DNA of 32,000 bases, from positions 1,995,622 through 2,027,621 of the forward strand of contig CP113000.1 in assembly GCA_026625185.1 (NCBI GenBank), read 5' to 3'. A program made the position numbers and the translations under genes. Every line of letters begins with the position of its first letter. Positions within the stretch are counted from its first letter, which is position 1. This stretch comes from Thermodesulfobacteriota bacterium (GTDB lineage Bacteria; Desulfobacterota; WTBG01; JAGOGO01). Below are positions 3,103-32,000 of the stretch, piece by piece. The notes under the pieces are model-generated. The model ran no database searches. It saw nothing but the letters and a program-made list of their open reading frames with translations, and was not told the DNA's origin.

Positions 3103-3135
3103 TAATAGGAAAAATTTTTGAGCGTAATATAAAAA

Positions 3136-6712: not shown

Positions 6713-6715
6713 CTC

Positions 6716-10127: not shown

Positions 10128-10141
10128 AAGAGAGAAGAAGA

Positions 10142-10211
10142 CAGAAGTCAGGAGTCAGATGCAGGGGCGCAAAGCATTGCGCCCAGTAGCCAGGAGTCTA
10201 GAGTCAGGGAA
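10142..10211 (+). repeat. 7-nt periodic CAGRAGW array flanking a GC hairpin (murB-ddl spacer)
   Basis: Left units: CAGAAGT, CAGGAGT, CAGATG at 10142/10149/10156. Hairpin: GGGCGCAA-agca-TTGCGCCC (10165-10184). Right units: CAGTAGC, CAGGAGT, CTAGAGT, CAGGGAA at 10184/10191/10198/10205. Confidence 0.7.
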
Positions 10212-10249
10212 AGATATAGTTAATGAGAAGGATGAAAGAAGAGGAACAG

Positions 10250-11203
10250 ATGGAAACGTGCATCACTAGGGAAACGTTAAAAAAGAAAAAGATTGGAGTC
10301 CTCATGGGTGGGCTTTCGCCGGAGCGGGAGATTTCCCTTAAAACCGGGCAGGCGATTCTGAAGGGGCTTTTGGAAAGAGATTTTCAGGCAATAGGGATTG
10401 ATGTGGACCGGGAAATTCCTGCCCGTCTGGTGGAAGAAAAAATCGAGGTGGCGTTTATTGCGCTCCATGGTCCTTGGGGTGAGGATGGTACGATTCAAGG
10501 ACTCTTGGAGGTGATGGGTATCCCCTACACCGGATCAGGGGTACTGGCCAGTGCTCTGGCCATGAACAAAGCAATGGCCAAGAAGATATTTTTATATCAT
10601 CGGCTTCCTACCCCTGAGTTTCAGGTGGTGATGTACGGTACCCGCTCATCAATCTCGATTGCTGCTCCTCTGGTGGTGAAGCCGGTTTGTGGTGGTTCTA
10701 CGATTGGGACCTCAATTGTAATGTCGGAAAAGGACATTGATGAGGCACTTCAAAGAGCAGCTTATTATGGTGAGGAAATACTGGTGGAACAGTATATTGA
10801 GGGCGTGGACATCACGGTTGGGGTTCTGAACGGGGAACCGCTTCCGGTGATCCAAATCGTGCCGAAGAGCGGATTTTATGATTATGCATCAAAATATACT
10901 CCGGGAAGAACCGAATATCTTATTCCTGCCCCGCTTCCGGAGACAATAACGAAAAGCGCCCAGGAGCTGGGAGTAGCTGCGTACCGGGCTTTGGAATGCT
11001 CGGGCGCCGCGCGGGTAGATTTTCGTTTAGGTGAACAAGGTGAACTTGCGATTTTAGAAGTAAACACGATCCCCGGTTTTACGGAGACAAGTTTATTACC
11101 AATGGCCGCAGCTCGGGTGGGGATAGATTTTTCGAGCCTGGCCGAGCGGGTCCTGCTTTCAGCACGATTGTACATTGATGCGAAGATGAGGCGTGATGAT
11201 TGA
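10250..11203 (+). CDS. ddl: D-alanine--D-alanine ligase
   Basis: IGVLMGG.S.EREISL N-terminus, ATP-grasp motifs and EVNT.PG. ATG 10250 has AGAGGA 4 nt upstream. Alternative in-frame ATGs lie at 10223 and 10232. Confidence 0.92.
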   Translation: METCITRETLKKKKIGVLMGGLSPEREISLKTGQAILKGLLERDFQAIGIDVDREIPARLVEEKIEVAFIALHGPWGEDGTIQGLLEVMGIPYTGSGVLASALAMNKAMAKKIFLYHRLPTPEFQVVMYGTRSSISIAAPLVVKPVCGGSTIGTSIVMSEKDIDEALQRAAYYGEEILVEQYIEGVDITVGVLNGEPLPVIQIVPKSGFYDYASKYTPGRTEYLIPAPLPETITKSAQELGVAAYRALECSGAARVDFRLGEQGELAILEVNTIPGFTETSLLPMAAARVGIDFSSLAERVLLSARLYIDAKMRRDD

Positions 11204-12023
11204 TTTAGATTATTATTATTCCCAAAAAATAACGAATCAAAAATCTTTTCTGTGGAAAAGAAGACATTTAAAGCACGGAGAGATAAAAAAAATTTGTTTT
11301 CTTTTTCTCCGGCTAATGCTTTTCTCAGCGATTATTATTCTGACGGCGGCCTCTTTATATTATGGCGGGAGCTTCATTGCCCGCTCCCCCTATTTTTCCT
11401 TGCAAGACATCCGCTTTGAGGGGTGCAAAAACGTTACGCCCCAGGAGTTGATGGGCCTTGCGAACGTACGACCGGGATACAATATTCTTGCGCTTAATTT
11501 ACAGGAGATTTCGCAAAAGATTATTACCAACCCTTGGGTTAAAGACGTGCGAATTGAACGGAACTTTCCCCGCCAGCTTATTATAGAAATTACTGAACGG
11601 GTTCCGGTAGCTCTGGCAAGTCAGGAAGGCCTTTTTTTGGTTGACCGAGAGGGAGATTTATTTAAAAAAGTTGAACGGCAGGATAACATTGATATGCCCG
11701 TGATAACGGGTCTTTCTCTTTCCGAACCGAACACTCAGCGTGTCAAGGAAATTCTTGATTTCTTAGAGACTGCTGAGCATATGGGAGTTTTTCCCGTAAG
11801 TGCGGTTTCGGAGGTTCATGTGGATGGCGATTATGGGATCACTGTTTATACGCTCACTGAGAATATTTCCATTCAGATGAGTCTTAAGGATTACTCAGAA
11901 AAACTTGCGTTGGTGAGAAGCCTTAAAGAAGACTTGGCAAAACGGAAGATCGAACCTCAGGCAATAGAAATAATTTCTTTAGATGAAGCCCACGTTAAGA
12001 TAGCTTCTTCCTCGAAAAGTTGA
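11193..12023 (+). CDS. ftsQ: cell division protein FtsQ (POTRA domain)
   Basis: Basic N-terminus, a single TM segment (FLFLRLMLFSAIIILTAASLYY), then POTRA-like I.F.G......EL. It overlaps the ddl stop and its position before ftsA fits. Confidence 0.82.
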   Translation: MMIDLDYYYSQKITNQKSFLWKRRHLKHGEIKKICFLFLRLMLFSAIIILTAASLYYGGSFIARSPYFSLQDIRFEGCKNVTPQELMGLANVRPGYNILALNLQEISQKIITNPWVKDVRIERNFPRQLIIEITERVPVALASQEGLFLVDREGDLFKKVERQDNIDMPVITGLSLSEPNTQRVKEILDFLETAEHMGVFPVSAVSEVHVDGDYGITVYTLTENISIQMSLKDYSEKLALVRSLKEDLAKRKIEPQAIEIISLDEAHVKIASSSKS

Positions 12024-12042
12024 GAAAGGAGGGCCGGTATAT

Positions 12043-13266
12043 ATGGGAAACAGCAGGAATGTGGTTGTTGGACTTGATATAGGAACGACGAAGATCTGTG
12101 CTATTGTAGGAGAAAAAACACCCGAGGGCATCGAAATTGTGGGCATTGGAACGTCCACCTCCAAAGGGCTGAAAAAGGGGATGATTGTTGATATCGAGGC
12201 CACCATTGATTCCATCCGTCATGCCAAAAAAGGGGCAGAAAAAATGGCGGAGTATAAAATTGAGACGGTTTATGCGGGAATTTCCGGAAGTCATGTGAAA
12301 AGCTTTAACAGCCATGGCGTTACTGCGGTCAAGAACAGTGAGGTCAAACGGGCGGATATCAAGCGGTCACTTGATGCGGCACGGGCGCTCGTGATTCCGA
12401 CCGATCGGGAAATCATCCATGTGCTGCCCCAGGAATTTATCGTTGATGACCAAGGCGGCATCCGGGATCCCTTAGGAATGTCCGGGAAGCTTCTTGAGGC
12501 AAAGGTGCACGTGGTAACCGGCGCGGTAACCTCAGCACAGAATATTGTTAAGTGTGCTAATCAGACCGGTGTCGACGTGAAGGATATCATCCTCCAACAA
12601 CTTGCTTCGAGTGAAGCCGTGCTTACCCCTGAAGAGAAAACGCTGGGCGTAGCGTTGGTTGACATAGGAGGGGGCACAACCGATATTGCCATTTTTTTCA
12701 ACGGGAGCATTACGTATACATCAGTGATACCTATTGGCGGTAACCAGTTTACATCAGATATTGCCTTGGTGCTGAGAACCCCGGTCAAAGAAGCGGAGCG
12801 GATAAAAAGAGATTACGGAAACGCTTTTGCCAACTCGGTCAGTCGCGATGAAATGATCGATTTTTTAACTGCCGATGGAAGTGAAACTCGTTCCATAGCC
12901 CGGCGGACCCTGTGCGAGATTATTGAACCCCGGGCCGAGGAAACTCTCGCACTGGTTTGTCGAGAGATCATAAAATCCGAACTGGTGGAATTTATCGGGG
13001 CGGGAGTGGTTTTAACGGGTGGTGCTTCCCTCCTACCGGGGATAAAGGAGATGGCAGAAAAAATTTTTAAGTTTCCGGTGCGGGTTGGATATCCTCAGGG
13101 AGTGAAAGGATTAAAAGACGTGGCAGACAATCCCATGTACGCCACGGGAATCGGATTAGTCCTCTATGGGAATAATCATCAGGCTCACCATAACTTTAAT
13201 GGCAACGGAAATTCCTCTCACACCTTTGTGCAGAGGATGAAAAAATGGTTTTTGGAGGTTTTTTGA
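12043..13266 (+). CDS. ftsA: cell division protein FtsA
   Basis: Actin-fold motifs (VGLDIGT.KI, VDIGGGTTD) and a C-terminal amphipathic helix (QRMKKWFLEVF). A strong SD (AAGGAGGG) lies upstream. Confidence 0.95.
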   Translation: MGNSRNVVVGLDIGTTKICAIVGEKTPEGIEIVGIGTSTSKGLKKGMIVDIEATIDSIRHAKKGAEKMAEYKIETVYAGISGSHVKSFNSHGVTAVKNSEVKRADIKRSLDAARALVIPTDREIIHVLPQEFIVDDQGGIRDPLGMSGKLLEAKVHVVTGAVTSAQNIVKCANQTGVDVKDIILQQLASSEAVLTPEEKTLGVALVDIGGGTTDIAIFFNGSITYTSVIPIGGNQFTSDIALVLRTPVKEAERIKRDYGNAFANSVSRDEMIDFLTADGSETRSIARRTLCEIIEPRAEETLALVCREIIKSELVEFIGAGVVLTGGASLLPGIKEMAEKIFKFPVRVGYPQGVKGLKDVADNPMYATGIGLVLYGNNHQAHHNFNGNGNSSHTFVQRMKKWFLEVF

Positions 13267-13348
13267 TAAAAGAAGAAAAAGGGCCTTGTCGAAAGAGTAA
13301 GGTCTTATAATTTAGCAACATTATTTCATAAGAAAGGGGGAAAAGCAG

Positions 13349-14518
13349 ATGATAGAATTAGCGGATATAACTACCATGGATGCCAAGATAAAAGTTGTCG
13401 GGGTGGGGGGAGCCGGATGCAATGCCCTGAACACCATGATTGATTCCCACCTGGAGGGAGTGGAGTTTATTGGGGCGAATACGGACCTGCAGTCCTTGGG
13501 GGCGTGCCGGTCTACGATTAAAGTTCAATTAGGACATAAGCTGACGAATGGGTTGGGCTCAGGGGGTGTGCCCGAAGTAGGTCGCGATGCGATGATGGAA
13601 GATGCGGAGAGAATGAAGAGCTTATTGGCCGGCTCGGACATGGTTTTTATTGCCGCCGGCATGGGCGGAGGTACCGGCACGGGTGGCGCTCCGGTCTTGG
13701 CGAAGATCGCTAAGGAGGTGGGGGCGCTCACGGTTGCGGTGGTTACCAAACCTTTTGTGTTCGAGGGGAAAAAACGGCAGCAGTCGGCGGAGCGAGGTAT
13801 TCAAGAATTAAAAAATGGAGTTGACACGCTCATCGCCATTCCTAACCAAAGACTTTTGTTAAATTCAGGGAAAAAGACGACATTGCTCGATGCCTTTAAG
13901 AAGGCAGATGAAGTTCTTCTTCATGCCGTCAAAGGGATATCCGATCTGATTACCATCCCCGGCCTGGTGAACCTTGATTTTAACGATGTCCGCACCGTTA
14001 TGTCCGAAATGGGTATGGCGTTTATGGGAATCGGACGGTCAAGCGGCGAGAATCGGGCGGTGGAAGCAGCGCAAAAAGCGATCTCCAGTCCGCTCCTGGA
14101 AGATATCAGCATTGATGGCGCCAAAGGCATATTGATTAATATTACCGCCGGGCCGGACTTAACGCTTTTTGAAGTCAATGAAGCTTCTACCTTAATCCAG
14201 GAAGATGCCCATGAAGAAGCGAACATCATCTTTGGAGCAGTGATTGATGAGAATGCGGGAGATGAAGTGCGCGTGACGGTTATTGCCACGGGTTTTGGAA
14301 AAGAGGAGGAGGAAAAAGCAAAACAGTTCAAGAGCAACGTCTCCTTTCTCAACAAATATATCCAGGATGACGACAGCCCCGCGGTGTGGCGAAAGAGGCT
14401 TCAGGAGCTTCGCCAGGTGACACCTGATGTGGTCAAAGTAGGCACGATAATTGACGGTTACTTCAATGATGGTTGCGATTATGATACGCCGACGTTTCTC
14501 CGGAGACATGCAGAATAA
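13349..14518 (+). CDS. ftsZ: cell division GTPase FtsZ
   Basis: Tubulin signature [14 protein letters not shown] and the C-terminal conserved peptide [10 protein letters not shown]. Confidence 0.98.
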
Positions 14519-14599: not shown

Positions 14600-16288
14600 A
14601 TGTCGTGGAAGTTAAAGGAGAAGGCCAGGGCCCTCCTGGCACAGGAACAAGGAACGATTGTTAAGCCCTCGGGGGGGAAGCTCTCCCTTGCCCTGGTTTT
14701 TCCCAACTATTACCATGTGGGAATGGCCAACCTGGGTTTTCAATCCGTTTATCGGATCATCAATGAGCTTCCCCAGGCAGTGTGCGAACGGGCGTTTCTT
14801 CCCGAACGAGCGGACATTCTGGAGTTTCAACGTTCTGCGACGCCCTTTTTTTCCCTCGAAACCCAGAAATCCCTCCAAGATTTCGATCTCATCGCATTTT
14901 CTCTTTCCTTTGAAAATGACTATCCCCATGTTTTAACCATCCTTGATTTAGCGCGGCTTCCTCTTCGCGCTTCGCAGCGCAAAGAAGGCTACCCGATGGT
15001 ATGTGCCGGAGGCGTTGCCGCCTTCCTTAACCCGGAGCCGCTGGCAGAATTCATGGACTTCTTTGCTCTCGGTGAAGCCGAAGAACTTTTACCGGAAACC
15101 CTTTCCTTGATTTTTAAACTCAAGAGCAAAGGGGTTCTGCGCCGTGATCTTTTAACCCGCCTTACCGCGGTTGGCGGTATTTACGTTCCCCGATTTTATT
15201 CCGTTACCTACCAGGAAAACGGACAAATTGCTGAGGTTCTTCCCCGGAAAGGAATCCCACCCATTGTCAAGCGACGCTGGGTCAAAAACGTGGATGACTA
15301 CCCGACCCAGTCCGTCATCCATGCTCCGGGGATAGAGTTCGGCGGGATGTTTCTGGTGGAAATCGGCCGGGGCTGTTCGTTTGGCTGCCGGTTCTGCGCT
15401 GCCGGATGGGTCTATCGGCCGGTGCGGATGAGGTCATTGGGCGCGATTGAAAAATCTATTCAGAGCGCTCTACGCGGTGAGAAAAAGATCGGCTTGATCA
15501 GTGCGGCGATTGGGGACCACCCTCAGCTCAAAGACATCTGCTATCACCTAAGAGCCGCGGGAGGAAAGCTTTCGGTATCTTCGCTGAGGGCTAATGTCAT
15601 AACCCGGGATATTTTGCAAGCATTAAAAGAAAGTGGTCACCAGTCAATCACTATGGCTCCGGAAACTGGTTCGGAGCGGCTCCGTCGTCTGATCAAAAAA
15701 AATATTACGGATGAAGAGATTTTTGAAGCCGTGGAGATGGTGGTTGCCAGCGGCATCCCGAACCTCCGTCTTTATTTTCTGGTCGGTCTTCCTTCGGAGG
15801 CCATGGAGGACATTGAGCAGATAGTCTCGCTGACGAAACAAATAAAACATGTTATCATCAAAAGCATTAAGAAAAAAAATCTACCGGGCACGATTAACTT
15901 AAGCCTTTCTCCTTTTGTTCCCAAGCCGTTTACCCCGTTTCAGTGGGTTCCGTTTGAGGACCTCAAACTTTTGCAGCACAAGATTAAACACATCCAGAAT
16001 GGTCTCAAGAATGAGCGCCAGGTCACGATCACCCATGACCTTCCCAAATGGAGCTACATTCAGGCTCTCTTGAGCAGAGGTGACCGGCGAGTAAGCAAGA
16101 TCCTTTTCCAGGTGCATAAGGATAACGGTGACTGGAACAAAGCCCTGCAGGAAACCGACGTCAACCCTGACTTTTACGTTTATCGCTTTCGTGAGCTTAC
16201 CGAGATCCTCCCCTGGGATTTTATTGACCAGGGCATTAAAAAAGAAACACTCATCTCCGAATATCACCGTGCTTTAACGCACGGGTAA
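14600..16288 (+). CDS. radical SAM protein (562 aa; resembles the uncharacterised TIGR03960-type family from memory)
   Basis: CxxxCxxC cluster motif in GRGCSFGCRFCAAGW. The N-terminal LALVFPNYYHVGMANLGFQSVY matches what I recall of TIGR03960-type proteins. No SPASM-like Cys cluster. Confidence 0.85.
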   Translation: MSWKLKEKARALLAQEQGTIVKPSGGKLSLALVFPNYYHVGMANLGFQSVYRIINELPQAVCERAFLPERADILEFQRSATPFFSLETQKSLQDFDLIAFSLSFENDYPHVLTILDLARLPLRASQRKEGYPMVCAGGVAAFLNPEPLAEFMDFFALGEAEELLPETLSLIFKLKSKGVLRRDLLTRLTAVGGIYVPRFYSVTYQENGQIAEVLPRKGIPPIVKRRWVKNVDDYPTQSVIHAPGIEFGGMFLVEIGRGCSFGCRFCAAGWVYRPVRMRSLGAIEKSIQSALRGEKKIGLISAAIGDHPQLKDICYHLRAAGGKLSVSSLRANVITRDILQALKESGHQSITMAPETGSERLRRLIKKNITDEEIFEAVEMVVASGIPNLRLYFLVGLPSEAMEDIEQIVSLTKQIKHVIIKSIKKKNLPGTINLSLSPFVPKPFTPFQWVPFEDLKLLQHKIKHIQNGLKNERQVTITHDLPKWSYIQALLSRGDRRVSKILFQVHKDNGDWNKALQETDVNPDFYVYRFRELTEILPWDFIDQGIKKETLISEYHRALTHG

Positions 16289-16530: not shown

Positions 16531-17817
16531 ATGGATAATAATTCCATAAGTACAAAAAGTCTTCTTCGCAGAAAGTACCTCTATATTATCCTCCCCACGT
16601 TTATCGGGTCGATCATCGCCTATCTCGACCGGGTAAACATTGCCTATGCGGCCCTTACCATGAACGCTGACCTTGGGTTTACCGCCCAGGTTTTTGGCGT
16701 GGGCTCGGGGATCTTTTTCGTGGGGTACGTGCTCTTTGAAGTGCCGGGAGCGCTCATCGCTGAACGCTGGAGTCCCCGCGCGTGGATCGCCCGGATCATG
16801 ATTACCTGGGGGCTTATTTCTTGGTGCATGGCCTTTGTTTCGAACGCGTGGCAGTTTTACCTGGTGCGTTTTTTGCTCGGAGCGGCTGAGGCAAGTTTTT
16901 ATCCGGTTATGTACGCGAGCGTTTTTCCGCGCTGGTTTACGCCTGAGGAGCGGCCTCAGGCGCTTGCCCTGATGCTTACGTCTCTGCAGATTTCAGTGAT
17001 TATCGGCGCGCCCCTTGCCGGATGGATTATCGGCATTGAGGCCTTTGGTTGGAAAGGTTGGCAGTTCCTGTTTGTCATCGAGTCAATACCCGCGCTCATC
17101 TTCGGGGTTATGGTTTTGTTTGTGCTGGCTGACTGGCCGGAACAGGTAACCTGGCTTACCCCGGAGGAGAAGCAGTTTTTAAAAGCCCGTTTTGAGCAGG
17201 AAATTGAAGCTAAAAAATCAGTGCGCCGCTATACCGTATGGGAGGCGCTCGGCGACCGAGAGGTACTTAAGCTTTGTTTGATTTATTTTCTGTGGATAAG
17301 CGGTTTCTGGGGTTTTAACTACTGGATGCCTACGGCGCTTAAGGAAGTATCCGGCTGGTCAAACCTGATGATCGGCTGGCTGATTGTGATCCCCATGATC
17401 CTGTCGCTCTTAGCAATGCTTTTTGTGGGGCGTTCTTCGTCGAGAAGCGGAGAAAAGCGCTGGCACGGAGCAATGCCCATGTTTATCGGCGCGATCGGCT
17501 TAGGGGTCGGCACTTTTATTCACGATCCGCTTATAAATCTCATCTTCATCACTCTTACTGCCATCGGAGTATACAGCGCTTTTGGCGTCTGGTGGGCCTA
17601 TCCGACCACCTTTTTGTCCGGAACAGCAGCTGCCGGCGCGGTGGGACTGATCAATTCCTTCGGCAATGTCGGAGGATATATCGGACCGTATCTTACTGGT
17701 TTTGTCAAAGATATGACCGGCTCTTTTTCGGGGGCGTACGTATTTCTCGCTGGTTTACTGGCGTTAGCGGGCTTGTTGATGCTTACACTGAAAAAGAAGA
17801 TACCCGCCAAAGGTTGA
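16531..17817 (+). CDS. MFS transporter, anion:cation symporter (ACS)-like
   Basis: About 12 TM segments. The N-terminal YLDRVNIAYAAL.MN.DLGF......G.GIFF.GY.LFEVPG motif is typical of ACS-family permeases (tartrate, galactonate or phthalate type). ATG 16531 is preferred over the track TTG 16519. Confidence 0.88.
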   Translation: MDNNSISTKSLLRRKYLYIILPTFIGSIIAYLDRVNIAYAALTMNADLGFTAQVFGVGSGIFFVGYVLFEVPGALIAERWSPRAWIARIMITWGLISWCMAFVSNAWQFYLVRFLLGAAEASFYPVMYASVFPRWFTPEERPQALALMLTSLQISVIIGAPLAGWIIGIEAFGWKGWQFLFVIESIPALIFGVMVLFVLADWPEQVTWLTPEEKQFLKARFEQEIEAKKSVRRYTVWEALGDREVLKLCLIYFLWISGFWGFNYWMPTALKEVSGWSNLMIGWLIVIPMILSLLAMLFVGRSSSRSGEKRWHGAMPMFIGAIGLGVGTFIHDPLINLIFITLTAIGVYSAFGVWWAYPTTFLSGTAAAGAVGLINSFGNVGGYIGPYLTGFVKDMTGSFSGAYVFLAGLLALAGLLMLTLKKKIPAKG

Positions 17818-18003: not shown

Positions 18004-18335
18004 TTGACTTTTTTCTTAAATTTATTTAATAAATCAGGTAAAATTCTCAACGAAGGTATAGTTTAAAGAGTTGCTTGAGAAGAATATATTTAATAATCAG
18101 CAAGCTTAAAACGAGGCCGGATCGCCTGAAGAAAAGGTGAAAGGCTTTTTTGTTTGGTGTACAGCCAAATCAGTCGAATCTGAAATTTTGCAAGGGGTGT
18201 TACACGGATCAATATAAACATAGACTGTCCATGGGATTGGCTTGTGGTCGTTGCGAGGCACCGGGAAATATATATGGAGAGGATTTGCTCTCATATATGA
18301 TTATAAACAGCAAAACTAACTGAATAGGAGTACTA

Positions 18336-18494
18336 ATGGCTAAACCAAACTACAAATTCGCGAAGCGTCAAAGAGATCTCGCCAAGAAACAGAAGAAAGA
18401 GGAGAAGCGGCAGCGTAAGGCCAGTGAACAGAGCGAACGGTCTCCGGAGGATCCTACTCAGCCGCCCGTCGAGAGTGACGTTGTTGAAAAATAA
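18336..18494 (+). CDS. hypothetical small basic protein (52 aa, Lys/Arg/Glu-rich); not in the ORF track (<60 aa)
   Basis: ATG 18336 with AGGAG (18326-18330) 5 nt upstream. My translation is MAKPNYKFAKRQRDLAKKQKKEEKRQRKASEQSERSPEDPTQPPVESDVVEK. A 32-nt perfect palindrome follows the stop. Confidence 0.55.
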   Translation: MAKPNYKFAKRQRDLAKKQKKEEKRQRKASEQSERSPEDPTQPPVESDVVEK

Positions 18495-18503
18495 CACTTT
18501 TCT

Positions 18504-18535
18504 ATGTAGGGGCACGGCGCGCCGTGCCCCTACAT
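18504..18535. repeat. REP-like GC-rich perfect palindrome with GTAG heads
   Basis: ATGTAGGGGCACGGCG/CGCCGTGCCCCTACAT, 16-bp arms. It shares the GTAGGGGCACG arm with the palindrome at 30483-30510. No T-run follows. Confidence 0.75.
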
Positions 18536-18588: not shown

Positions 18589-18681
18589 CCCTCTTGAGGG
18601 GGTTGTCACGAAGTGACGGGGTGTATTGAGTGTTATTGAGCAATGGATAGAAGAAAACACCCCTAACACCTCTCAAGAGGG
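18589..18681. repeat. nested inverted repeat / candidate structured RNA or MITE remnant
   Basis: Outer 10-bp stem CCCTCTTGAG/CTCAAGAGGG. Inner 7-bp stem GGGGTGT/ACACCCC. A side hairpin GTCAC-gaa-GTGAC is present. The 32-nt loop holds TTGAGCAAT, complementary to ATTGCTCAA at 18564-18572. Confidence 0.5.
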
Positions 18682-20358: not shown

Positions 20359-21618
20359 CTAACCAGCTTGTACCCGTTGATAGTTTACGTTTTTCTCAAA
20401 GCCTTCAAATCTGAATAAGGGATCATCACAAGTTAATCTTTTTATGCAGTCAAGATGGAACCTGTTGTAAAATGTAGGGTGAAAGAAATCAGTCTCATAA
20501 TTATCAGGTGATACGATTCTGTTTTTGCCCTCATTTTGTAAAATGGAAGACGTTAAAGGGAGGTGCTTGAAAAGACGAATATAAAAATTCAAACCTACAA
20601 CCTTGGGACAAATTTCCCTGAAAAATTGGATATAGGTCTCAACTTGGGGCAACGAATCACCGGGGAAGCCAAATAAAAAGTCAATAGCCAGCTTAATATT
20701 ATACTTTTTTGAATATTCGTTAATCTTTCTTATTACGGCAAAATTCTTTTCCCTGTCCTCCAGAGTATCAACATTTAATGTAATCAGGTAGCACTTTGCC
20801 TCACTCATAAGTTTAATTAAATCCTCATTGAACAGATCGAGCTTCATATAACAGGCCCATTTTAAGGGAAGTTTTTCTTTTATAAGCCTTTTACAAAAGT
20901 TAACGCAATAAGAATAACGGATATTAAACTCACTGTCGCATATATGGAAGTGATTATATCCCTTTTTTACCAGGCAACTCAATTCCTCAATACATAAACT
21001 AATATTTTTCGCCCAATATGGCTTTTCTCTCTCCAAACAGTACGCACATTTTCTGGGGCAGCCTTTTTGCAGTTCAATCCCTAAAATACCGCAATTTTTC
21101 AGATACTTATCATAATCTATCAACTCGCCTCTCCTGTTGTGAGGCAGCCATTCAAAGCCATAATCCCACCCATTTATTAACCTGTAATTTACCTGCCCTT
21201 GCTCAAGATCTTTTAGAATTTTAAGCAAGGCGCCTTCTCCGGGACCAATAACGCCTATATCTCCCCCAAGGTAATTCAATATCTCCATAGGCATGGAAGA
21301 AAAGCCCTGGCCGCCTAAAATAACCGGCGAAGATGCATACTTCTTGATTATAGATATTATCTCATTATATTCCTTCAGAAAAAATTGATTATTAAAATAT
21401 ACGGTGGTATCGACATTCCTTATGGTAATGCCTATAATGTCATACTTCTCGCGCCTGAAAAATCGCCGGACATCATTTTCTACATTTTCACTAAAACACA
21501 AATCTAAAACCGAAACCTCATGCCCGCTTTCCCATAAATGGGTAGCAAGGTATTCAATGGCCATCGGTATCACGGGTGGCTTCTTATATCGATTTGGATT
21601 TACGAGAGCAATCTGCAT
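20359..21618 (-). CDS. radical SAM protein with N-terminal B12-binding-like domain (class B type, 419 aa)
   Basis: N-terminus MQIALVNPN...PMAIEYLATHL.ESGHEV.VLD is typical of cobalamin-binding-domain rSAMs. CxxxCxxC sits in QKGCPRKCAYC. The gene is markedly AT-rich. Confidence 0.85.
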   Translation of the reverse strand: MQIALVNPNRYKKPPVIPMAIEYLATHLWESGHEVSVLDLCFSENVENDVRRFFRREKYDIIGITIRNVDTTVYFNNQFFLKEYNEIISIIKKYASSPVILGGQGFSSMPMEILNYLGGDIGVIGPGEGALLKILKDLEQGQVNYRLINGWDYGFEWLPHNRRGELIDYDKYLKNCGILGIELQKGCPRKCAYCLEREKPYWAKNISLCIEELSCLVKKGYNHFHICDSEFNIRYSYCVNFCKRLIKEKLPLKWACYMKLDLFNEDLIKLMSEAKCYLITLNVDTLEDREKNFAVIRKINEYSKKYNIKLAIDFLFGFPGDSLPQVETYIQFFREICPKVVGLNFYIRLFKHLPLTSSILQNEGKNRIVSPDNYETDFFHPTFYNRFHLDCIKRLTCDDPLFRFEGFEKNVNYQRVQAG

Positions 21619-23583: not shown

Positions 23584-26316
23584 TTATTTTTTCTTCTTCG
23601 TCTTCTTCTCATTGGTAACTGCTGCCTGAGCCGCAGCCAGTCGGGCAATGGGTACGCGGAAAGGCGAACAGCTCACGTAGTTCATTCCCACCCGGTGGCA
23701 GAACTCGATGGACGAAGGGTCTCCCCCGTGTTCACCGCAGATACCAATCTTAAGATCCGGTTTTGTTGACCGCCCTTTTTTCACGCCCATGGCAACCAGC
23801 TCGCCGACACCTTCCTGATCCAGTATCTGAAACGGGTCATGGGGAAGGATATTTTTAGTTAAGTACTCAGGCAAAAACGAGCCGGTATCATCCCGGGAAA
23901 AGCCAATGGTCGTTTGGGTAAGGTCATTGGTTCCAAAAGAGAAAAACTCAGCTTGCTCAGCGATTTTGTCGGCAACCACACACGCTCGCGGAATCTCGAT
24001 CATGGTTCCGATCAGGTAAGGAAACTTTACCTTCATTTCTTTCTGAACTTCCAGGGCCACGCGGGCAACGATCGCTTTTTGATGCGCCAGTTCATTGACC
24101 GACCCAACCAGAGGGATCATGACTTCAGGAAAGACCTTGATTTTTTTTTGGGTGAGTGTAGCCGCGGCTTCAAAAATCGCCCGGGCCTGCATTTCGGAAA
24201 TCTCCGGATAAGTTATCCCCAGGCGGCAGCCACGATGGCCGAGCATGGGGTTAAGCTCATGGAGGTGAGCGATGCGGCTTTCTAATTTAGCCTTGGGTAC
24301 TTCCAGTTCCGCAGCCAGTTCAGTGATCTGTTCGTCATTGAGGCCGACAAACTCATGGAGCGGCGGATCGAGCAACCGGATAGTAACCGGAAGCCCTTTC
24401 ATGGCCTCAAAGATTCCAATGAAATCTTCCCGCTGGTAGGGGAGAAGTTTCATTATCGCTTTGCGGCGGCCTTCTTCGTTTTCCGCTACAATCATTTCGC
24501 GCATGGCTTTGATGCGCTCCGGATCAAAGAACATGTGCTCGGTCCGCGTAAGACCGATTCCTTCGGCTCCGAAGGACCGGGCAATCAAGGCATCCTGCGG
24601 GGTGTCGGCATTGGTGCGGATGCCAAGGGTTCGCACTTCATCCGCCCACTTCATAAGCTGCTTATACTTCTTATTTTGCTCCGGATCCGCCGGAAGCAAG
24701 GGAATCTGTCCCTGGTAAACAACGCCTTTGCTTCCATTAAGCGTTATCCAATCGCCTTCGCTGAGAGTATAATTTTCAACTGATATGGTTTTAGATTCCA
24801 GTTTTATATTCAAGGCCGAGCAGCCTACAATACAACATTTTCCCCAGCCGCGGGCAACCAGGGCTGCGTGGCTCGTCATACCGCCTTTGGCGGTTAAAAT
24901 CGCTTCGGCCGCGTGCATGCCATGGACATCTTCAGGAGAGGTCTCATTGCGGACCAGGATGACTTTTTCTCCTCGCTTGGCCCACTCTTCCGCATCATCG
25001 GCAGTGAAAACAATCTTGCCGGTTCCTGCGCCCGGACCGGCGGGAAGCCCTTTGGCGAGAACATGCCTCTGGGCCTCAGCTTTGGGATCAATCATGGGGT
25101 GGAGAAGTTCATCAATCTGCTGGGGTTTTACCCGCATGATAGCTTCCTTTTTAGAAATCAAACCCGCCTTGCACATATCCACTGCCATTTGGATTGCGGC
25201 GATCCCGTTGCGTTTGCCCACCCTTGTCTGGAGCATCCAGAGCCGTCCTTCCTGGATGGTAAACTCGATGTCCTGCATGTCGCGAAAGTGTTTTTCCAGT
25301 TTCAAACGAATGGTATTAAGGTCTTTGTAAACCCTGGGCATGGCTTCTTCGAGAGAAGGCAGGTGTTGCGTGGCTTCAGTCTTGCCTGCTTTATTGATCG
25401 GCAGAGGGGTTCTGATGCCGGCGACCACATCCTCGCCTTGAGCATTGGGGAGCCATTCGCCGTAAAATTTATTTTCTCCGGTAGCTGGATTGCGCGTAAA
25501 ACCGACACCGGTGGCGGAGGTTTCTCCGGTGTTGCCGAAGACCATTGACTGGACATTTACCGCGGTCCCCCAGTCGTCCGGGATTCCTTCGATCCTGCGG
25601 TAGCTTATGGCTCGTTTTCCGTTCCAGGACTGAAAAACTGCTCCAATGCCGCCCCAGAGCTGTTCGTAGGCATCATCCGGAAAAGGTTTTCCGATAACGT
25701 CGTTGATTTTTGTTTTGAAGATTTCGCACAGTTCTTTGAGATCATCAACCGTCAAGTCGGTATCCTGGGTAACGTTTCGTGCCTGTTTCATGTTTTCCAT
25801 GGCATGCTCTAACTGAAGGCGGATGCCCTTTCCTTCTTCAGGCTCCAGGCCGGCGGCTTTTTCCATGACCACATCCGCATACATCATCATCAGTCGGCGA
25901 TAGGCATCATAAACAAACCGCTCGTTATTGGTTTTGGCAATGAGACCGGGAATGGTCTTGCTGGTCAGCCCGACATTGAGAACCGTTTCCATCATCCCGG
26001 GCATGGAGCTTCGTGCACCCGAACGGACTGAGACCAGCAGGGGATCTTGGGCGTCACCGAAGTTTTTTCCCATCACTTTTTCCACCTTCGTGAGCGCGTT
26101 TTCCACGTCTTTTTTAAGCTCCGGAGGATATTTTTTATTGTTTTTATAGTAGGCAGTGCAAACTTCAGTTGTAATGGTAAACCCTGCGGGAACCGGTATT
26201 TTTAAATTGGTCATTTCCGCCAGATTGGCCCCCTTGCCCCCCAGGAGGTTTTTCATCTCCCCTTTTCCTTCAGCTTTCCCTGCTCCAAAGAAATAGACAT
26301 ATTTTTTCTTAGCCAT
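23584..26316 (-). CDS. ppdK: pyruvate, phosphate dikinase
   Basis: 910 aa. N-terminal ATP-grasp (GGKGANLAEM), phospho-histidine motif GGMTSHAALVARG and PEP-utilising C-terminal motif (GICGEHGGDP). Confidence 0.97.
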   Translation of the reverse strand: MAKKKYVYFFGAGKAEGKGEMKNLLGGKGANLAEMTNLKIPVPAGFTITTEVCTAYYKNNKKYPPELKKDVENALTKVEKVMGKNFGDAQDPLLVSVRSGARSSMPGMMETVLNVGLTSKTIPGLIAKTNNERFVYDAYRRLMMMYADVVMEKAAGLEPEEGKGIRLQLEHAMENMKQARNVTQDTDLTVDDLKELCEIFKTKINDVIGKPFPDDAYEQLWGGIGAVFQSWNGKRAISYRRIEGIPDDWGTAVNVQSMVFGNTGETSATGVGFTRNPATGENKFYGEWLPNAQGEDVVAGIRTPLPINKAGKTEATQHLPSLEEAMPRVYKDLNTIRLKLEKHFRDMQDIEFTIQEGRLWMLQTRVGKRNGIAAIQMAVDMCKAGLISKKEAIMRVKPQQIDELLHPMIDPKAEAQRHVLAKGLPAGPGAGTGKIVFTADDAEEWAKRGEKVILVRNETSPEDVHGMHAAEAILTAKGGMTSHAALVARGWGKCCIVGCSALNIKLESKTISVENYTLSEGDWITLNGSKGVVYQGQIPLLPADPEQNKKYKQLMKWADEVRTLGIRTNADTPQDALIARSFGAEGIGLTRTEHMFFDPERIKAMREMIVAENEEGRRKAIMKLLPYQREDFIGIFEAMKGLPVTIRLLDPPLHEFVGLNDEQITELAAELEVPKAKLESRIAHLHELNPMLGHRGCRLGITYPEISEMQARAIFEAAATLTQKKIKVFPEVMIPLVGSVNELAHQKAIVARVALEVQKEMKVKFPYLIGTMIEIPRACVVADKIAEQAEFFSFGTNDLTQTTIGFSRDDTGSFLPEYLTKNILPHDPFQILDQEGVGELVAMGVKKGRSTKPDLKIGICGEHGGDPSSIEFCHRVGMNYVSCSPFRVPIARLAAAQAAVTNEKKTKKKK

Positions 26317-26452: not shown

Positions 26453-28528
26453 TCATTCGGTAATAATCTTTGCAAAATCAGCCACACCCCGGAAAAGCGC
26501 AGCAACCTTGCCTAATAAAGCCAGTCGGTTTGCCTTTACCGCCTGATCCTCGCACATGACCATGACGCCGTCAAAAAAATTATCCACCGCAGGCTTTAAA
26601 TTTGCCAGACGTTTTAATGCTGCCGGGTAATCCCGGGTTTCGATGAGGTGATGAATTTTTATTGCACCTTTTTGGTAAGAATCATACAGGTTTTTTTCCG
26701 CTTCCTCGGTCAGTAACGAAGGATTGACATCCTCATAGGCATGGGAAGCGATGATATTCACTACCCGTTTGAAGGTGATCGCCAGGGGCTGAAAGTCCGG
26801 TTGTTTTTTTAATTCCTGTATGGCTTTGATTCGTTCGAACACCTCAACCAGGTCTACAAAACCTGCCGATGAAGCTGCCTCGACTACATCATGATCAAAA
26901 CCTTGCGCGGTGAGCCGGTTAAGGAACCGGACGCGGATGAATTCCAACACCTCATCTTGGATCGCATCCAGACTGCGGTTTGTTTTCGCGGCAAAAAGGT
27001 TGATGCTGCGGCTGAGAAGGTCAGGCAGAAGAAGATGAAAAGATTTTTCAAGGATGATATTGATAATGCCTAACGCATGCCGTCTGAGGGCATAGGGATC
27101 CGCGGTTCCGGTAGGAACAAGTCCGATGCTGAAACAGCCGACGATGTTATCCGTTTTTTCCGCGATACTTAAAAGCGAGCCGATAACCGATGCGGGGAGG
27201 ATCCCTTTTCGGGTCGTGGGAAGGTAATGTTCATACAGCGCCTGGGCGACGTCCGGGTCCTCACCCTCTAAGAGGGCGTATTCCCGGCCCATTGTTCCTT
27301 GTAGGGAAGGAAACTCGCCCACCATGGCGGTTAAAAGGTCGGTTTTACAGAGCAGAGCCGCCCGCTGTGTTTTCTGAGCAAGCGCGGGGTTTACCGCTTG
27401 CACAAGATGAGAAGTGATTTCCGTGAGCCTTGCCACCTTGTCATACAGGGAGCCAAGTTTAACCTGATACACAACGTGCTTTAACGCGTCCACCCGGTCA
27501 AAGAGAGTTTTTTTACGGTCTTCCCGAAAGAAAAACCGGGCATCAGTAAGCCGGGCCGAAAGAACCCGCTCGTTTCCTTTAATCACGACCTGAGGATCGC
27601 GCGCCCGGTTGTTGGAAACCACAATGAAATAGGGAAGGAGCGCGTCGTGTGCGTCAATGAGTGCGAAGTATTTTTGATGCTCGCGCATTGAGCTGATGAG
27701 CACATCGCGCGGCAATTCCAGAAATGCGGGAGCGAAAGAGCCTCGCAGGGTAACCGGATACTCGATCAAGTTGACCACCTCATCCAGAAGATCTTCATCG
27801 GCCAGTACTTTTCCGCCCACTTCTTCAGCTAGCCGCTGTGCATCTCTTTGTATGCTTGCCTTTCTTTTTTCGATCTCCGGCATTACGAAATTTTCTTCAC
27901 TTTGCTGGAGATAGGACGCAACATCTTGAACAGTAAAAGGCTGGTTGCTCAGAAAGCGATGCCCCCATGATTGATTTGAGCTTTTCACCGTATCAATACT
28001 CAGGGGAATAATCGTGTTATTAAACAGGGCGAGAATCCATTTGATCGGCCGGACAAACCGCACATCAGAATTTGCCCAGCGCATTGACTTGGGAAAAGGG
28101 ATGGCAGAAATAACTTTTTCTAAAAACTCCGGTAGAAGAGAAATTGTTTCTTTTCCGCTAATTTTTTTGGTTACCTGAATATATCTCCCCTTGGGTGTAT
28201 CCACGACCCCAAGGTCCGAGAGGGCTACTCCCTGCCGAAGGGCGAAACTTTCTGCGGCTTTGGTAGGATTGCCGTTCGCGTCAAAAGCTACTTTTGCCGG
28301 GGGGCCCACGGTATCGACAACCGTATCAGCTTGTTTTTCTGCCATGCCCTCAGCGCATAGGACTAAACGCCGGGGTGTGCCGAAGGTAAAAATATTTTCA
28401 CAATGAATCCTTTGAGTTTCCAGCTCGGTTTGGAGGAGGTTTTTCATCCCTTCAAGAGCGGGGGATAAAAATCCGGCTGGGATTTCTTCAGTGCCGATTT
28501 CTAATAAGAGTTCTCCGGTCATCACCAT
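26453..28528 (-). CDS. glyS: glycine--tRNA ligase beta subunit
   Basis: 691 aa. N-terminal LLLEIGTEEIP, later motifs (F.TPRRL, ..MRW, GTADPYALRR) are typical of GlyS. Confidence 0.96.
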   Translation of the reverse strand: MVMTGELLLEIGTEEIPAGFLSPALEGMKNLLQTELETQRIHCENIFTFGTPRRLVLCAEGMAEKQADTVVDTVGPPAKVAFDANGNPTKAAESFALRQGVALSDLGVVDTPKGRYIQVTKKISGKETISLLPEFLEKVISAIPFPKSMRWANSDVRFVRPIKWILALFNNTIIPLSIDTVKSSNQSWGHRFLSNQPFTVQDVASYLQQSEENFVMPEIEKRKASIQRDAQRLAEEVGGKVLADEDLLDEVVNLIEYPVTLRGSFAPAFLELPRDVLISSMREHQKYFALIDAHDALLPYFIVVSNNRARDPQVVIKGNERVLSARLTDARFFFREDRKKTLFDRVDALKHVVYQVKLGSLYDKVARLTEITSHLVQAVNPALAQKTQRAALLCKTDLLTAMVGEFPSLQGTMGREYALLEGEDPDVAQALYEHYLPTTRKGILPASVIGSLLSIAEKTDNIVGCFSIGLVPTGTADPYALRRHALGIINIILEKSFHLLLPDLLSRSINLFAAKTNRSLDAIQDEVLEFIRVRFLNRLTAQGFDHDVVEAASSAGFVDLVEVFERIKAIQELKKQPDFQPLAITFKRVVNIIASHAYEDVNPSLLTEEAEKNLYDSYQKGAIKIHHLIETRDYPAALKRLANLKPAVDNFFDGVMVMCEDQAVKANRLALLGKVAALFRGVADFAKIITE

Positions 28529-28673
28529 ATCTGCTTCAAAAAGCTTTTTGTTTAGTTAAATAAAAACCATCCGGTTAAATTCTTCGGTCCTGTTACCATT
28601 AGGCTTGCTTGAAGGGCTCTAACAAATACGGAGCCTTGTGATGTCCTGCTTTCGCGGGCTGCAATTATGTAAA

Positions 28674-28702
28674 GCTATAAAATTATTGAGTAAATAAGTC
28701 AA
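28674..28702 (-). promoter_or_regulatory. candidate promoter for glyS (minus strand)
   Basis: On the minus strand: TTGACT (28702-28697), 17 nt spacer, TATAGC (28679-28674). A second candidate is TTGAAA (28750-28745), 17 nt, TATAAC (28727-28722). Confidence 0.3.
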
Positions 28703-28720
28703 CAAAAATTAAAGTATATC

Positions 28721-28729
28721 TGTTATAAT
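28721..28729 (+). promoter_or_regulatory. candidate extended -10 promoter (TGtTATAAT) for the inserted radical SAM gene
   Basis: TG-n-TATAAT lies 59 nt upstream of ATG 28788 in an AT-rich divergent spacer. It overlaps a minus-strand -10 candidate. Confidence 0.3.
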
Positions 28730-28787
28730 ATAAAGAATCGGTATTTTCAATAAAAGAGATTATTTAAATTATTTTTTTTAAAAACCA

Positions 28788-30461
28788 ATGAAGGTCCTTC
28801 TTATTCAACCGCCTATCCAGGATTTTTACGGGACCGCGATACGGACCCAGCCGATCGGGCTGGCGTATCTTGCGGCTTCCCTTCAAGCCCACGGTCACGA
28901 GGTTGAAATCTTCGACTGCCGGGCGGGAAAGAAAAAGATGATTCCTATTCCGGCGGAACTTTCCTATCTTCTTAATTTTTATCCCTTTAATGATCAAAGC
29001 CCCTTTAAACTTTATTCCGGCTATTATCATTTTGGCCGAGGATGGGAAGAGATTAGAGAAAAAATTAAGGATTCTCGCGCTGATGTGTTTGGAATTTCTG
29101 CTTCCTTTAGCCCGTATCTTCGAGAGGCCTTGGAGGTTGCCCGGATAATTAAAGAATGGGATCAGAGGAAAATCGTGGTAATGGGAGGGGCTCACGTAAA
29201 CGGCGATCCTGAGGGAATGTTAAAAAATCCTTTTGTTGATTACCTTGTTTTAGGCGAGGGAGAAGTTCGGTTTTCAAAGCTTTTGGATCAGATTGAAAAA
29301 AAAGGAATAAAAAAAATTGGGGATTACGATGGGATCGGCTTCCGCATTAACGGCGAACTGCGGATTAATCCGGTGAAGACTTTTATTGGGGAACTTGACC
29401 TCCTTCCTTATCCGGCAAGGCAACTCCTAGATCCGGATTGCTACCGCATAAAAAGGAAACGATCAACCATGATCATAACCAGCCGGGGCTGTCCTCATGG
29501 ATGCGCCTACTGTTCAGCTCATCTGGTTATGGGCACTGCTTTTAGGAAACGGTCTCCTGAAAATATTATTCAAGAGATGAGGGAGTGCCGGGAAAAATTT
29601 GATATTCAAACTTTTGATATTGAAGATGATAATTTTACCTTTGATATTAAACGGGCAAAACAGCTGCTCGGCCTGATTATTGAAACTTTTGGGGAAGAGA
29701 CCCTTGAACTTTCCGCCATGAACGGGGTCTCTTTCGCGGCATTGGATGGGGAACTGCTCGGCTTGATGAAAAGAGCGGGCTTTAAAACAATCAACCTCTC
29801 GTTTGTGAGCGCCGATACTTTAACCAGGGAGAGAATGAAGCGGCCCAGCGGGTTAATCGATTTTGATTCAATTGTAAGTGAGGCAGGAAAGACAGGCTTA
29901 CAGGTTATTGGCTACGCGATATTAGGAATGCCCGGTCAAACCCTTTACGAGATGGTAGAAACAATCATCCACCTGATGGGGCAAAGGGTGCTTATCGGGC
30001 CGAGCATTTACTATCCTACTCCGGGTACTCCTCTTTTTGAGGTCTGTAAAAAAGAAGGCTTGCTTCCGCCGCATCCCCTTCAGTGGCGTTCCAGCGCTTT
30101 TCCCCTTGAGACAAAAGATTTCACCCGCCTTGATCTGGTAACCCTTTTCCGCCTCACCCGGGTGATTAATTTTATTAAAGGAAAGATGGCTGAGAAAGAA
30201 ATTGATGACGGAATGACAATGAAGGAGGTAGGACAATTTCTTGAAGATAGAAAAAAACTTAAACTTGTTTCAGGTGATAATTATAATCAGCCCTCCTGGA
30301 TGGATTTACTCCGGTTGCTTTTTAAGGAACAGTCTTTTTTTAGCCTGAAAAAGGTGTCAAAAGGAAATTTTCTCGTGAATAATGAAGAAACCTCAAAAAA
30401 AGTCTTGGATTGTTTTTTTGAGAAAGGGGGAAAAAGCCCAATTCTCAAGAATACGGTATAA
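28788..30461 (+). CDS. radical SAM protein with N-terminal B12-binding-like domain (557 aa)
   Basis: MKVLLIQPP...QPIGLAYLAASLQAHGHEVEIFD N-terminus, GGAH and CxxxCxxC in SRGCPHGCAYC, followed by IEDDNF. No obvious SD is present. Confidence 0.87.
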   Translation: MKVLLIQPPIQDFYGTAIRTQPIGLAYLAASLQAHGHEVEIFDCRAGKKKMIPIPAELSYLLNFYPFNDQSPFKLYSGYYHFGRGWEEIREKIKDSRADVFGISASFSPYLREALEVARIIKEWDQRKIVVMGGAHVNGDPEGMLKNPFVDYLVLGEGEVRFSKLLDQIEKKGIKKIGDYDGIGFRINGELRINPVKTFIGELDLLPYPARQLLDPDCYRIKRKRSTMIITSRGCPHGCAYCSAHLVMGTAFRKRSPENIIQEMRECREKFDIQTFDIEDDNFTFDIKRAKQLLGLIIETFGEETLELSAMNGVSFAALDGELLGLMKRAGFKTINLSFVSADTLTRERMKRPSGLIDFDSIVSEAGKTGLQVIGYAILGMPGQTLYEMVETIIHLMGQRVLIGPSIYYPTPGTPLFEVCKKEGLLPPHPLQWRSSAFPLETKDFTRLDLVTLFRLTRVINFIKGKMAEKEIDDGMTMKEVGQFLEDRKKLKLVSGDNYNQPSWMDLLRLLFKEQSFFSLKKVSKGNFLVNNEETSKKVLDCFFEKGGKSPILKNTV

Positions 30462-30482
30462 TAAAATCCTTGGTGTGAGAGG

Positions 30483-30510
30483 GTAGGGGCACGTTGCAAC
30501 GTGCCCCTAC
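30483..30510. terminator. REP-like GTAG-headed palindrome acting as a likely terminator between convergent genes
   Basis: GTAGGGGCACG-ttgcaa-CGTGCCCCTAC (11-bp arms) followed on the + strand by AAATTTTT. It lies 21 nt after the rSAM stop and 6 nt from the glyQ stop. Confidence 0.65.
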
Positions 30511-30516
30511 AAATTT

Positions 30517-31450: not shown

Positions 31451-32000
31451 TTATCCTCTTATTTTCTCCAAAAACTTTAAGCTTTTTAGTTCTTTTCCCA
31501 AATGGTATTGCACAAAGTGTGGCATAATCTCACGGCTTTCTTCCAAAGCCTGGGAAGAAAAGTTCAGCCGCTCAATTTTATCAAGGGTTAAATTTCCTGC
31601 CTGTTCTAATAATTTTAATGTTCCTAAAGAAACAGGATGTAAATTATTTTTATTTAAAGCACATGAGGGACACACGACTCCTCCGCGGGGAATATTAAAC
31701 CAGAAACGCGGTCCTTTTTCCAGCTTTTGTTTGCAGTCAAGGCAATGGGTGAGGGTAGGACGAAAACCCGATGCCACCAGGAAGCGCATTTCGAAAATTC
31801 GGAGATAATCTTCCTTAAACGGCGAAGAATCAATCAGGGAGAGAAGTTTGATTAATGTGTGGAACAGTTCCCGGTGGGCAACCCGTTCCGCGGTCATCTC
31901 ATTTATGAGCTCCGCCATATAGCTTCCATAGCTCATGCTCGTAATATCTTTATGAAGGGAGGGGAACGATTGTTTTAAATGGCAATGATTAATCCTTACC
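31451..32000 (-). CDS. recO: DNA repair protein RecO, C-terminal part (5' end outside window)
   Basis: The frame is open to the window edge. Zinc-finger pattern CLDC...(x19)...CPSC and a RecO-like C-terminal helical region are present. Position upstream of glyQ fits. Confidence 0.85.

Follow-up and report, generated by a model that had tools for sequence, protein, structure and literature searches.

Why should the genes for the two subunits of an essential enzyme be kept apart by a gene of the opposite strand? This question is raised by a 32,000-nucleotide stretch of contig CP113000.1 from a Thermodesulfobacteriota bacterium (assembly GCA_026625185.1), hereafter the window, in which the glycyl-tRNA synthetase (GlyRS) genes glyQ and glyS are separated by 1988 bp (interval 28529-30516). 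A gene for a cobalamin-type (class B) radical S-adenosylmethionine protein, called rSAM below, lies between them in the opposite orientation. Comparison with related loci makes it quite probable that this layout results from a lineage-specific disruption of an ancestral glyQ-glyS(-ppdK) operon, with a variable junction and a palindrome resembling repetitive extragenic palindromes (REPs). The initial annotation of this DNA had described the 1988-bp gap, a 557-aa radical SAM gene on the + strand, a 259-bp spacer and the palindrome, and all of these coordinates and features agree with the open reading frame (ORF) map and with the domain searches. The locus is laid out as follows:

23584-26316, - strand: ppdK, pyruvate phosphate dikinase (TIGR01828, 1336 bits)
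26453-28528, - strand: glyS, glycine--tRNA ligase beta subunit (PF02092 and TIGR00211 matches)
28529-28787, no strand: divergent AT-rich spacer of 259 bp between glyS and rSAM
28788-30461, + strand: rSAM, cobalamin-type (class B) radical SAM gene, 557 aa (PF02310 and PF04055)
30483-30510, no strand: perfect 28-nt GTAG...CTAC palindrome, a REP-like hairpin between the convergent rSAM and glyQ stop codons
30517-31389, - strand: glyQ, glycine--tRNA ligase alpha subunit (PF02091 and TIGR00388 matches)
31451-31936, - strand: recO, C-terminal part (PF02565 RecO_C, E 3.3e-31; TIGR00613, 94 bits), probably continuing past the window end

The glyQ product matched PF02091 with 513 bits (E 1.6e-154) in the Pfam domain search and TIGR00388 over its full length with 510 bits (cut-off 361). 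The glyS product gave 681 bits with PF02092 (E 2e-204) and 843 bits with TIGR00211, and also contained a DALR_1 anticodon-binding domain (E 8e-08). Judged by these domain matches, both subunits of an alpha2beta2 GlyRS are encoded at this locus.

Gene order around glyQ and glyS in relatives

Loci of relatives were seeded with the glyQ of the window, 80 of them from species-representative genomes and 80 from metagenomes (160 in total; the best glyQ match in the genome collection was 80% identical), and glyS, ppdK, recO and rSAM were placed on them by tblastn. In 137 of the 160 loci, which come from many phyla, glyS directly follows glyQ in the same orientation, and the median distance between them is 42 nt. 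As 16 loci were too short to judge, adjacency holds for 137 of the 144 informative loci, the other 7 having no glyS within at least 3 kb. A second count, with 136 adjacent loci, was used for the flanking genes: of the informative loci, 53 of 109 have recO upstream and 29 of 83 have ppdK downstream of glyS, and both are present in 13.

Among the 160 seeded loci, a gap of about 2 kb between glyQ and glyS was found in L085 alone, and the order recO-glyQ-rSAM(opposite)-glyS-ppdK recurs only there (97% identity to the window for glyQ, 81% for rSAM, 90% for glyS and 91% for ppdK). The insert is also present in L001-3, in L177-180 (including the NCBI metagenome-assembled genome (MAG) GCA_029216075.1), in L169 and in L175/L176. 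The rSAM-bearing arrangement is thus limited to one narrow clade of uncultured Thermodesulfobacteriota of the sulfate-reducer type, with glyQ at least 93% identical, and rSAM was in no glyQS locus outside this clade (about 159 examined). The nearest outgroup, L172/L173, was found by protein search and has the order Peptidase_M24(map)-def-recO-glyQ-glyS-ppdK without any insert (85% identity to the window for glyQ, 63% for glyS, 74% for ppdK). The genes upstream of glyQ are the same in this outgroup as in the clade member L169, and recO is directly upstream of glyQ in L085, L169, L172 and L174. Because L172/L173 show an uninterrupted, empty site, the position of rSAM between glyQ and glyS is, on comparative grounds, a derived and clade-specific insertion rather than an ancient unit.

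The proposal that a conserved recO-glyQ-glyS-ppdK block had received an insertion, and that an empty site should be sought in related genomes, is therefore borne out by the widespread adjacency, by the empty outgroup site and by the narrow distribution. An ancient and universal three-gene unit, which would have overturned the proposal, is not what the relatives contain, as the unit is confined to the one clade. The block had also been likened to that of Geobacter-type genomes: the order glyQ-glyS-ppdK is indeed present in the Geobacter and Geotalea loci, but recO was not detected upstream of it with the partial recO query.

Compared with the canonical glyQS operon (E. coli, Geobacter), the locus contains the same subunit genes, with full-length equivalog-level matches, and its flanks, recO upstream and ppdK downstream, are common in relatives. 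In contrast, glyS does not directly follow glyQ on the same strand; the two genes are 1988 bp apart here and about 11 kb apart in sister genomes. With an opposite-strand gene between them, no simple shared glyQ-glyS mRNA is therefore to be expected. A chimeric join inside the glyQS operon, produced during assembly or binning, has a next to negligible probability: nothing specific favours it beyond the metagenomic nature of the related sequences, whereas the same order occurs in at least 7 contigs whose assemblies are independent and whose samples and sources (JGI, ENA, NCBI) differ, and the proteins of the window itself are on record for a 3.3-Mb contig.

Separation of the two genes also occurs elsewhere. 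In Helicobacter and Aquifex, glyQ and glyS are unlinked. In another near outgroup, L170/L171 (8001-11114; glyQ 86% identical), the genes after glyQ are rpoZ and one for a sigma-70 factor, with no glyS nearby, and glyQ without a nearby glyS was also seen in L021, L024, L027, L072, L113, L145 and L152. The 7 unlinked loci among the 144 include Deferribacterales, Seleniivibrio and Desulfofustis MAGs. Together with L170/L171, they indicate that unlinking of glyQ and glyS arose independently several times. The window resembles these bacteria in that the subunits would likewise come from separate transcription units. It differs in that the genes are still neighbours within a conserved block, and in that an outgroup with an empty site reveals both the breakpoint and the gene inserted there.

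The inserted gene and the divergent spacer

The rSAM product contains an N-terminal B12-binding domain (PF02310, 75.5 bits, residues 86-165) and a Radical_SAM domain (PF04055, 63.4 bits), with the CX3CX2C cluster motif as CPHGCAYC at residues 235-242. No cut-off was reached among the curated NCBIfam families. The best score was that of the Sden_1168 family (169 bits against a cut-off of 575), and the next ones were 99 bits against 481 and 98 against 578. The named B12-dependent equivalogs (Sden_1168 P-methyltransferase, BchE, HpnJ, HpnR, ladderane-type, BzaD, PhpK and others) were accordingly all scored below cut-off. By sequence, TokK (E 7e-12) and 9CCB (E 4e-11) are the nearest proteins of solved structure, the latter being QCMT, the glutamine C-methyltransferase of methyl-coenzyme M reductase (2026 review, PMC12931638); both are cobalamin radical SAM C-methyltransferases. 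Our best guess, held with low confidence, is that rSAM could be a cobalamin-dependent class B enzyme of the methyltransferase type, with a substrate other than GlyRS. A literature search for the function of this particular group returned nothing specific.

With class B enzymes such as TokK, QCMT, BchE, HpnJ/HpnR and the PhpK-type P-methyltransferases, the protein shares the B12-binding Rossmann domain, the radical SAM core and a C-terminal extension. However, it falls far under every curated family cut-off and forms a tight orthologous group of its own, in which members of different lineages are about 67% identical. The homologues number more than 2700; the best 120 have full-length identities of 65-84%, and the named sources are Thermodesulfobacteriota. 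On five contigs, orthologues with 67-69% identity occur as a single monocistronic gene preceded by a 300-500 nt spacer, without a surrounding biosynthetic gene cluster. They are flanked by DnaJ-LonC-RsmE on one side and by pilin-His_Phos_1-2-oxoacid oxidoreductase (POR) on the other, although the upstream flank differs in L167. On these contigs glyQ and glyS are never near the orthologues, so that this unrelated neighbourhood gives no indication of a functional tie between rSAM and GlyRS.

Within the clade the codon-position identities of rSAM against L085 (0.87/0.93/0.70) indicate that the gene is under purifying selection. Two other assignments were discarded: PADLOC gives only a generic 30-bit radical SAM match, so rSAM was not taken as a defence gene, and the second B12-dependent radical SAM protein of the window (20359-21618) is 22% identical and unrelated beyond the superfamily.

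The spacer between glyS and rSAM has a GC content of 0.297, against 0.456 for the window. Its nucleotide identity is 83% to both L085 and L001 and 83-87% across all clade members, and four-fold (silent) sites of the flanking genes are 68-82% identical. A strong conservation of the spacer was considered and dropped, as the 94% column identity of the alignment is inflated by three identical rows and the pairwise value is 83%. No Rfam family matched at the gathering threshold across the window, and relaxed settings on 28450-28850 gave chance-level matches only (E >5). A T-box or another known RNA leader upstream of glyS was also rejected, given the lack of an Rfam match and a candidate leader of about 140 nt that folds no better than its shuffles (z +0.5).

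A sigma-70 consensus scan of the spacer reported no promoter-like site at threshold on either strand. Two candidates were read by eye:

28674-28702, - strand: candidate glyS promoter, TTGACT (28702-28697), 17-nt spacer, TATAGC (28679-28674)
28721-28729, + strand: candidate extended -10 element TGTTATAAT for rSAM

The glyS candidate misses the scan threshold through the C at position 6 of its -10 box; in relatives its -35 box is TTGACT or TTGGCT and its -10 box TAGACT or TAGAAT. The scan demands a -35 hexamer and for this reason does not report the rSAM candidate, in which TATAAT is invariant in all five aligned relatives and TG is lost in L085. The conservation of both candidates among relatives is only partial. 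Of the plausible promoters that had been announced in both directions, weak candidates on each strand therefore stand, but the consensus scan does not find them.

A more telling observation comes from the sister genomes. In L177, glyQ and glyS are about 11 kb apart with genes on both strands between them, and for this reason glyS cannot depend on a glyQ promoter there. In L177 and L169, 9-10 kb of such genes lie between glyQ and rSAM, yet the spacer between glyS and rSAM is kept at 83-87%. This retained spacer and the 11-kb separation are the strongest indirect evidence for an independent glyS promoter, and they support the earlier claim that glyS-ppdK would need a promoter of its own. In the window, ppdK is on the same strand as glyS, 136 nt downstream of it, and the terminator scan found no terminator-like site in this gap.

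The constancy of the glyS side could also be taken as a sign of functional coupling, in which rSAM would act on the GlyRS beta subunit, on tRNA-Gly or on a glycine-derived metabolite, and the divergent pair would be selected and co-regulated. The pair and its 259-bp spacer are kept in every clade member, even where the far side of rSAM varies, and the two candidate promoters stand back to back within about 50 bp. We nevertheless regard coupling as very improbable, for the orthologues on the five other contigs have neither glyQ nor glyS in their vicinity, the gene is absent from the glyQS loci outside the clade, and the conservation of the spacer, which yielded no RNA element, hardly exceeds that of silent sites.

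The palindrome and the variable glyQ-rSAM junction

The palindrome at 30483-30510 consists of two 14-nt arms, GTAGGGGCACGTTG and CAACGTGCCCCTAC, which are 100% self-complementary. It is located 6 nt from the glyQ stop codon and 21 nt from that of rSAM. The predicted hairpin has a folding energy of -28.9 kcal/mol on the + strand (z -4.8) and of -25.0 kcal/mol on the - strand (z -5.4), and none of 100 window shuffles produced a match. On the + strand, which is the rSAM sense, a 12-pair stem is followed by the U-rich tail AAATTTTTAA, as in an intrinsic terminator. On the - strand, the glyQ sense, the stem is followed by CCCTCTCACACC without a U-tract, and the terminator scan reports no site. The palindrome would thus suit termination of the rSAM transcript and not of glyQ, for which it might at best be a hairpin barrier to read-through. 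The initial annotation had raised the possibility that it stops transcription from glyQ: the hairpin is where it was said to be, but the U-tract belongs to the rSAM-sense strand only.

In L001-3 and L177-180 the palindrome is identical at 28 of 28 positions and at the same distance from the rSAM stop codon. The surrounding DNA is about 83-86% identical, and a 28/28 match would have a chance probability of roughly 0.005-0.015. The palindrome is neither a conserved part of the rSAM arrangement nor required by it, because it is missing in L085, where the gene arrangement is the same.

A regex scan recovered a second member of the family in the window:

18506-18533, no strand: second palindrome of the family, GTAGGGGCACGGCGCGCCGTGCCCCTAC

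This copy is predicted to form a hairpin of -29.4 kcal/mol (z -7.8). Its arms agree with those of the copy at 30483 in their outer 9 nt, while the core differs and is still palindromic. It follows the stop codon of a 52-aa Lys/Arg/Glu-rich ORF (18337-18496) by about 10 nt, within a 1-kb intergenic region flanked by genes for a major facilitator superfamily transporter and a metallo-beta-lactamase-fold protein. The frame GTAGGGGCR...YGCCCCTAC with differing self-complementary cores was found at this site, four times in L169, twice in L002 and also in the unrelated MAGs L016 and L078. The scan counted 2 copies in the 32-kb window, 4 in L169 (21 kb) and 2 in L002, and none in L085. Two of the L169 copies headed by GTAGGGGC (16926-16953 and 17559-17586) fall within the coding frame of hsdM, a gene of a type I restriction-modification (R-M) system, where they encode RG..P.APT-like peptides corresponding to two 5-residue insertions relative to PDB 3KHK. 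The same hsdM gene also carries one internal stop codon.

Published GTAG-tagged REPs carry GTAG at the end of a GC-rich palindrome of 20-40 bp, a description that the 28-nt GTAGGGGCACGTTGCAACGTGCCCCTAC fits. They are located preferentially between convergent ORFs, supply a TAG stop codon in some cases and are intragenic in others (Di Nocera et al. 2013, PMC3733652); REPs associated with REP-associated tyrosine transposases (RAYTs) are treated in PMC2817692. The window copy shares with them the GTAG head, the GC-rich palindrome and the position downstream of ORFs between convergent genes. Likewise, the L175 copy supplies a TAG stop codon, and the intragenic hsdM copies of L169 resemble the published intragenic REPs. 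The window copy differs in that its GTAG tag is paired with CTAC. The survey's text mentions neither 'delta' nor 'Geobacter'. Most plausibly, the palindrome would belong to a dispersed family of REP-like hairpins headed by GTAGGGGC.

It could instead be no repeat at all but a locally evolved intrinsic terminator, acting in both directions to shield the convergent transcripts of glyQ and rSAM from each other. The hairpin is strong on both strands, stands exactly between the two stop codons and is terminator-like on the + strand. However, the glyQ-sense strand lacks a U-tract, L085 does without the palindrome, the frame recurs with varied palindromic cores at 18506 and in L169, L002, L016 and L078, and the copy in L001 is identical within diverged DNA. 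A purely local terminator is thus unlikely in our view.

Another repeat, GAGGGG(T)TGTCACGAAGTGACGGGGTGT, with a GTCAC-GAA-GTGAC palindrome, was noticed at 18590-18625 of the window and at 11737-11773 of L002. Its copies are near GTAG palindromes, in the 17.8-18.8 kb intergenic region of the window and in the L002 island.

The gap between glyQ and rSAM varies widely within the clade. It measures 22 nt in L085, with no stable hairpin, and 55 nt in the window, where it includes the palindrome. L175/L176 (glyQ 93%) have 1.2 kb with three small ORFs, one of them a DUF2283 gene, and in L175 a GTAG hairpin overlaps the TAG stop codon of glyQ. L177, L179 and L180 have 9.06 kb with ORF6N, a type II methyltransferase (MTase), two unknown genes and a helix-turn-helix (HTH)/M78 gene. 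L169 has 9.8 kb with an HTH/M78 gene, type I R-M remnants, ORF6N and AbiEi/AbiEii. In L002/L178 the gap exceeds 10 kb and includes RhuM, AbiEii and, according to PADLOC, a complete Zorya type I set ZorA-D (L178 14664-21674). The ZorA-D, AbiEii and type II MTase genes represent defence content. The interval can therefore not be taken as a fixed 2-kb insert, since sister genomes hold islands of 1.2 kb to >10 kb at the same junction.

This junction resembles defence-island hotspots in that the conserved flanks glyQ and rSAM enclose a cargo that differs from strain to strain. It differs from them in that the window is in a near-empty, 55-nt state and that no integrase or tRNA marks the site. By its sequence, the junction does not have the make-up of a tRNA- or integrase-associated genomic island; tRNA genes were found in none of the window, L177, L178, L169 and L085. 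A role of the palindrome as a classical attachment site of the islands is not supported, as the L169 copies at the two island ends differ in core and the L177 copy is on the rSAM side only. It is quite doubtful that the convergent gap is a dedicated landing pad for defence islands, with the REP-like hairpins as the sequence of gain and loss and the window hairpin as the empty or scar state. If it were so, REP-like hairpins would be described for the first time in Thermodesulfobacteriota, and as able to sit in-frame inside genes.

In the islands, a repeated module of about 190 nt follows palindromes (L002 9723-9910 and 11817-12010; L001 9723-9910; L169 20450-20638, - strand). It has TTGAC and TATAAT-like boxes and a conserved end made of an A-tract, a GGCC...GGCC hairpin and a T-tract; its inner stems covary (z -1.8 to -3.7). 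Rfam gave no credible match for the module or for the 17.8-18.9 kb intergenic region of the window, in which a terminator-like tail resembling the module's end is found at about 18113-18150. The module may represent a small transcription unit or mark the boundary of a cassette.

The presence of islands next to rSAM raises the question of whether this gene itself arrived horizontally as island cargo in the glyQ-glyS gap and became fixed while the rest of the island turned over. It adjoins the hypervariable site and evolves faster than its neighbours, with an amino-acid identity of 82-84% against 90-93% for glyS. On the other side, its GC and GC3 (GC at third codon positions) values of 0.44 and 0.45 match the window average, recO and the lyase gene, so that no compositional anomaly is seen, and there is no integrase, transposase or tRNA at the site. 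Moreover, its orthologues occur on the chromosome as conserved single genes with housekeeping neighbours, and it is present in all clade members. We consider this origin rather unlikely, although it deserves to be kept in mind.

Proposed course of events and neighbouring genes

To account for the lineage-specific disruption of the operon, which we favour, we hypothesize that in the ancestor of the clade a stand-alone cobalamin rSAM gene was placed between glyQ and glyS in the opposite orientation. Since then glyS, probably with ppdK, would have been transcribed from its own promoter in the spacer that it shares with rSAM, and glyQ would have stayed at the end of the map-def-recO-glyQ array. 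The new convergent, 3'-to-3' gap between glyQ and rSAM would have been neutral and has become a variable region, holding nothing in one relative, one REP-like hairpin in the window and islands of 1-10 kb or longer in sister genomes. The window palindrome would then act as an intrinsic terminator or a 3'-end stabiliser of the rSAM mRNA and, without a U-tract, as a hairpin barrier for glyQ.

Several points weigh against parts of this scheme. Both promoter candidates are under the threshold of the consensus scan, and the conservation of the spacer is barely above that of silent sites. The REP status depends on 2 copies in the 32-kb window; in the copy at 30483-30510, GTAG pairs with the terminal CTAC instead of being left unpaired, and no Y1 transposase (RAYT) match was obtained among the 14 window ORFs scanned against Pfam. 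The substrate class of rSAM is a guess from distant structural relatives. Flanking repeats, integrase, transposase and tRNA were not seen at the site, as searched by tRNA scans and in the gene tables of L001-3, L169 and L177-180. Also, the data may fit both a move of rSAM within the genome and its transfer from another lineage of Thermodesulfobacteriota.

The split of glyQ and glyS is a real but fairly ordinary lineage-specific change of gene order, of a familiar type, and it does not overturn current understanding. Its value is that of a clean, datable case of a broken operon for an essential two-subunit enzyme, for which there is an outgroup with an empty site as well as a series of sites occupied to different degrees. 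It also suggests that a stoichiometric alpha2beta2 GlyRS tolerates uncoupled transcription of its subunits. Three by-products are of moderate interest. The junction is a reproducible variable site of anti-phage system build-up in uncultured Thermodesulfobacteriota and may aid the mining of defence systems there; the conserved and uncharacterised group of cobalamin radical SAM orthologues is brought to notice; and a family of REP-like hairpins is suggested for the phylum. To our knowledge, REP-like repeats have not been catalogued in Thermodesulfobacteriota.

Other genes of the window were noted in passing. Downstream of ppdK, a 419-aa B12-binding radical SAM gene (20359-21618, - strand) adjoins a beta-eliminating lyase gene. 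The left half of the window (1-14518, + strand) is occupied by an apparent division and cell-wall cluster, in which the scanned ORFs are Mur ligases, FtsA and FtsZ, and which is unrelated to the split of glyQ and glyS. Just after ftsZ, a gene for a 562-aa protein with Radical_SAM_N2 and Radical_SAM domains is located at 14600-16288 (+ strand).

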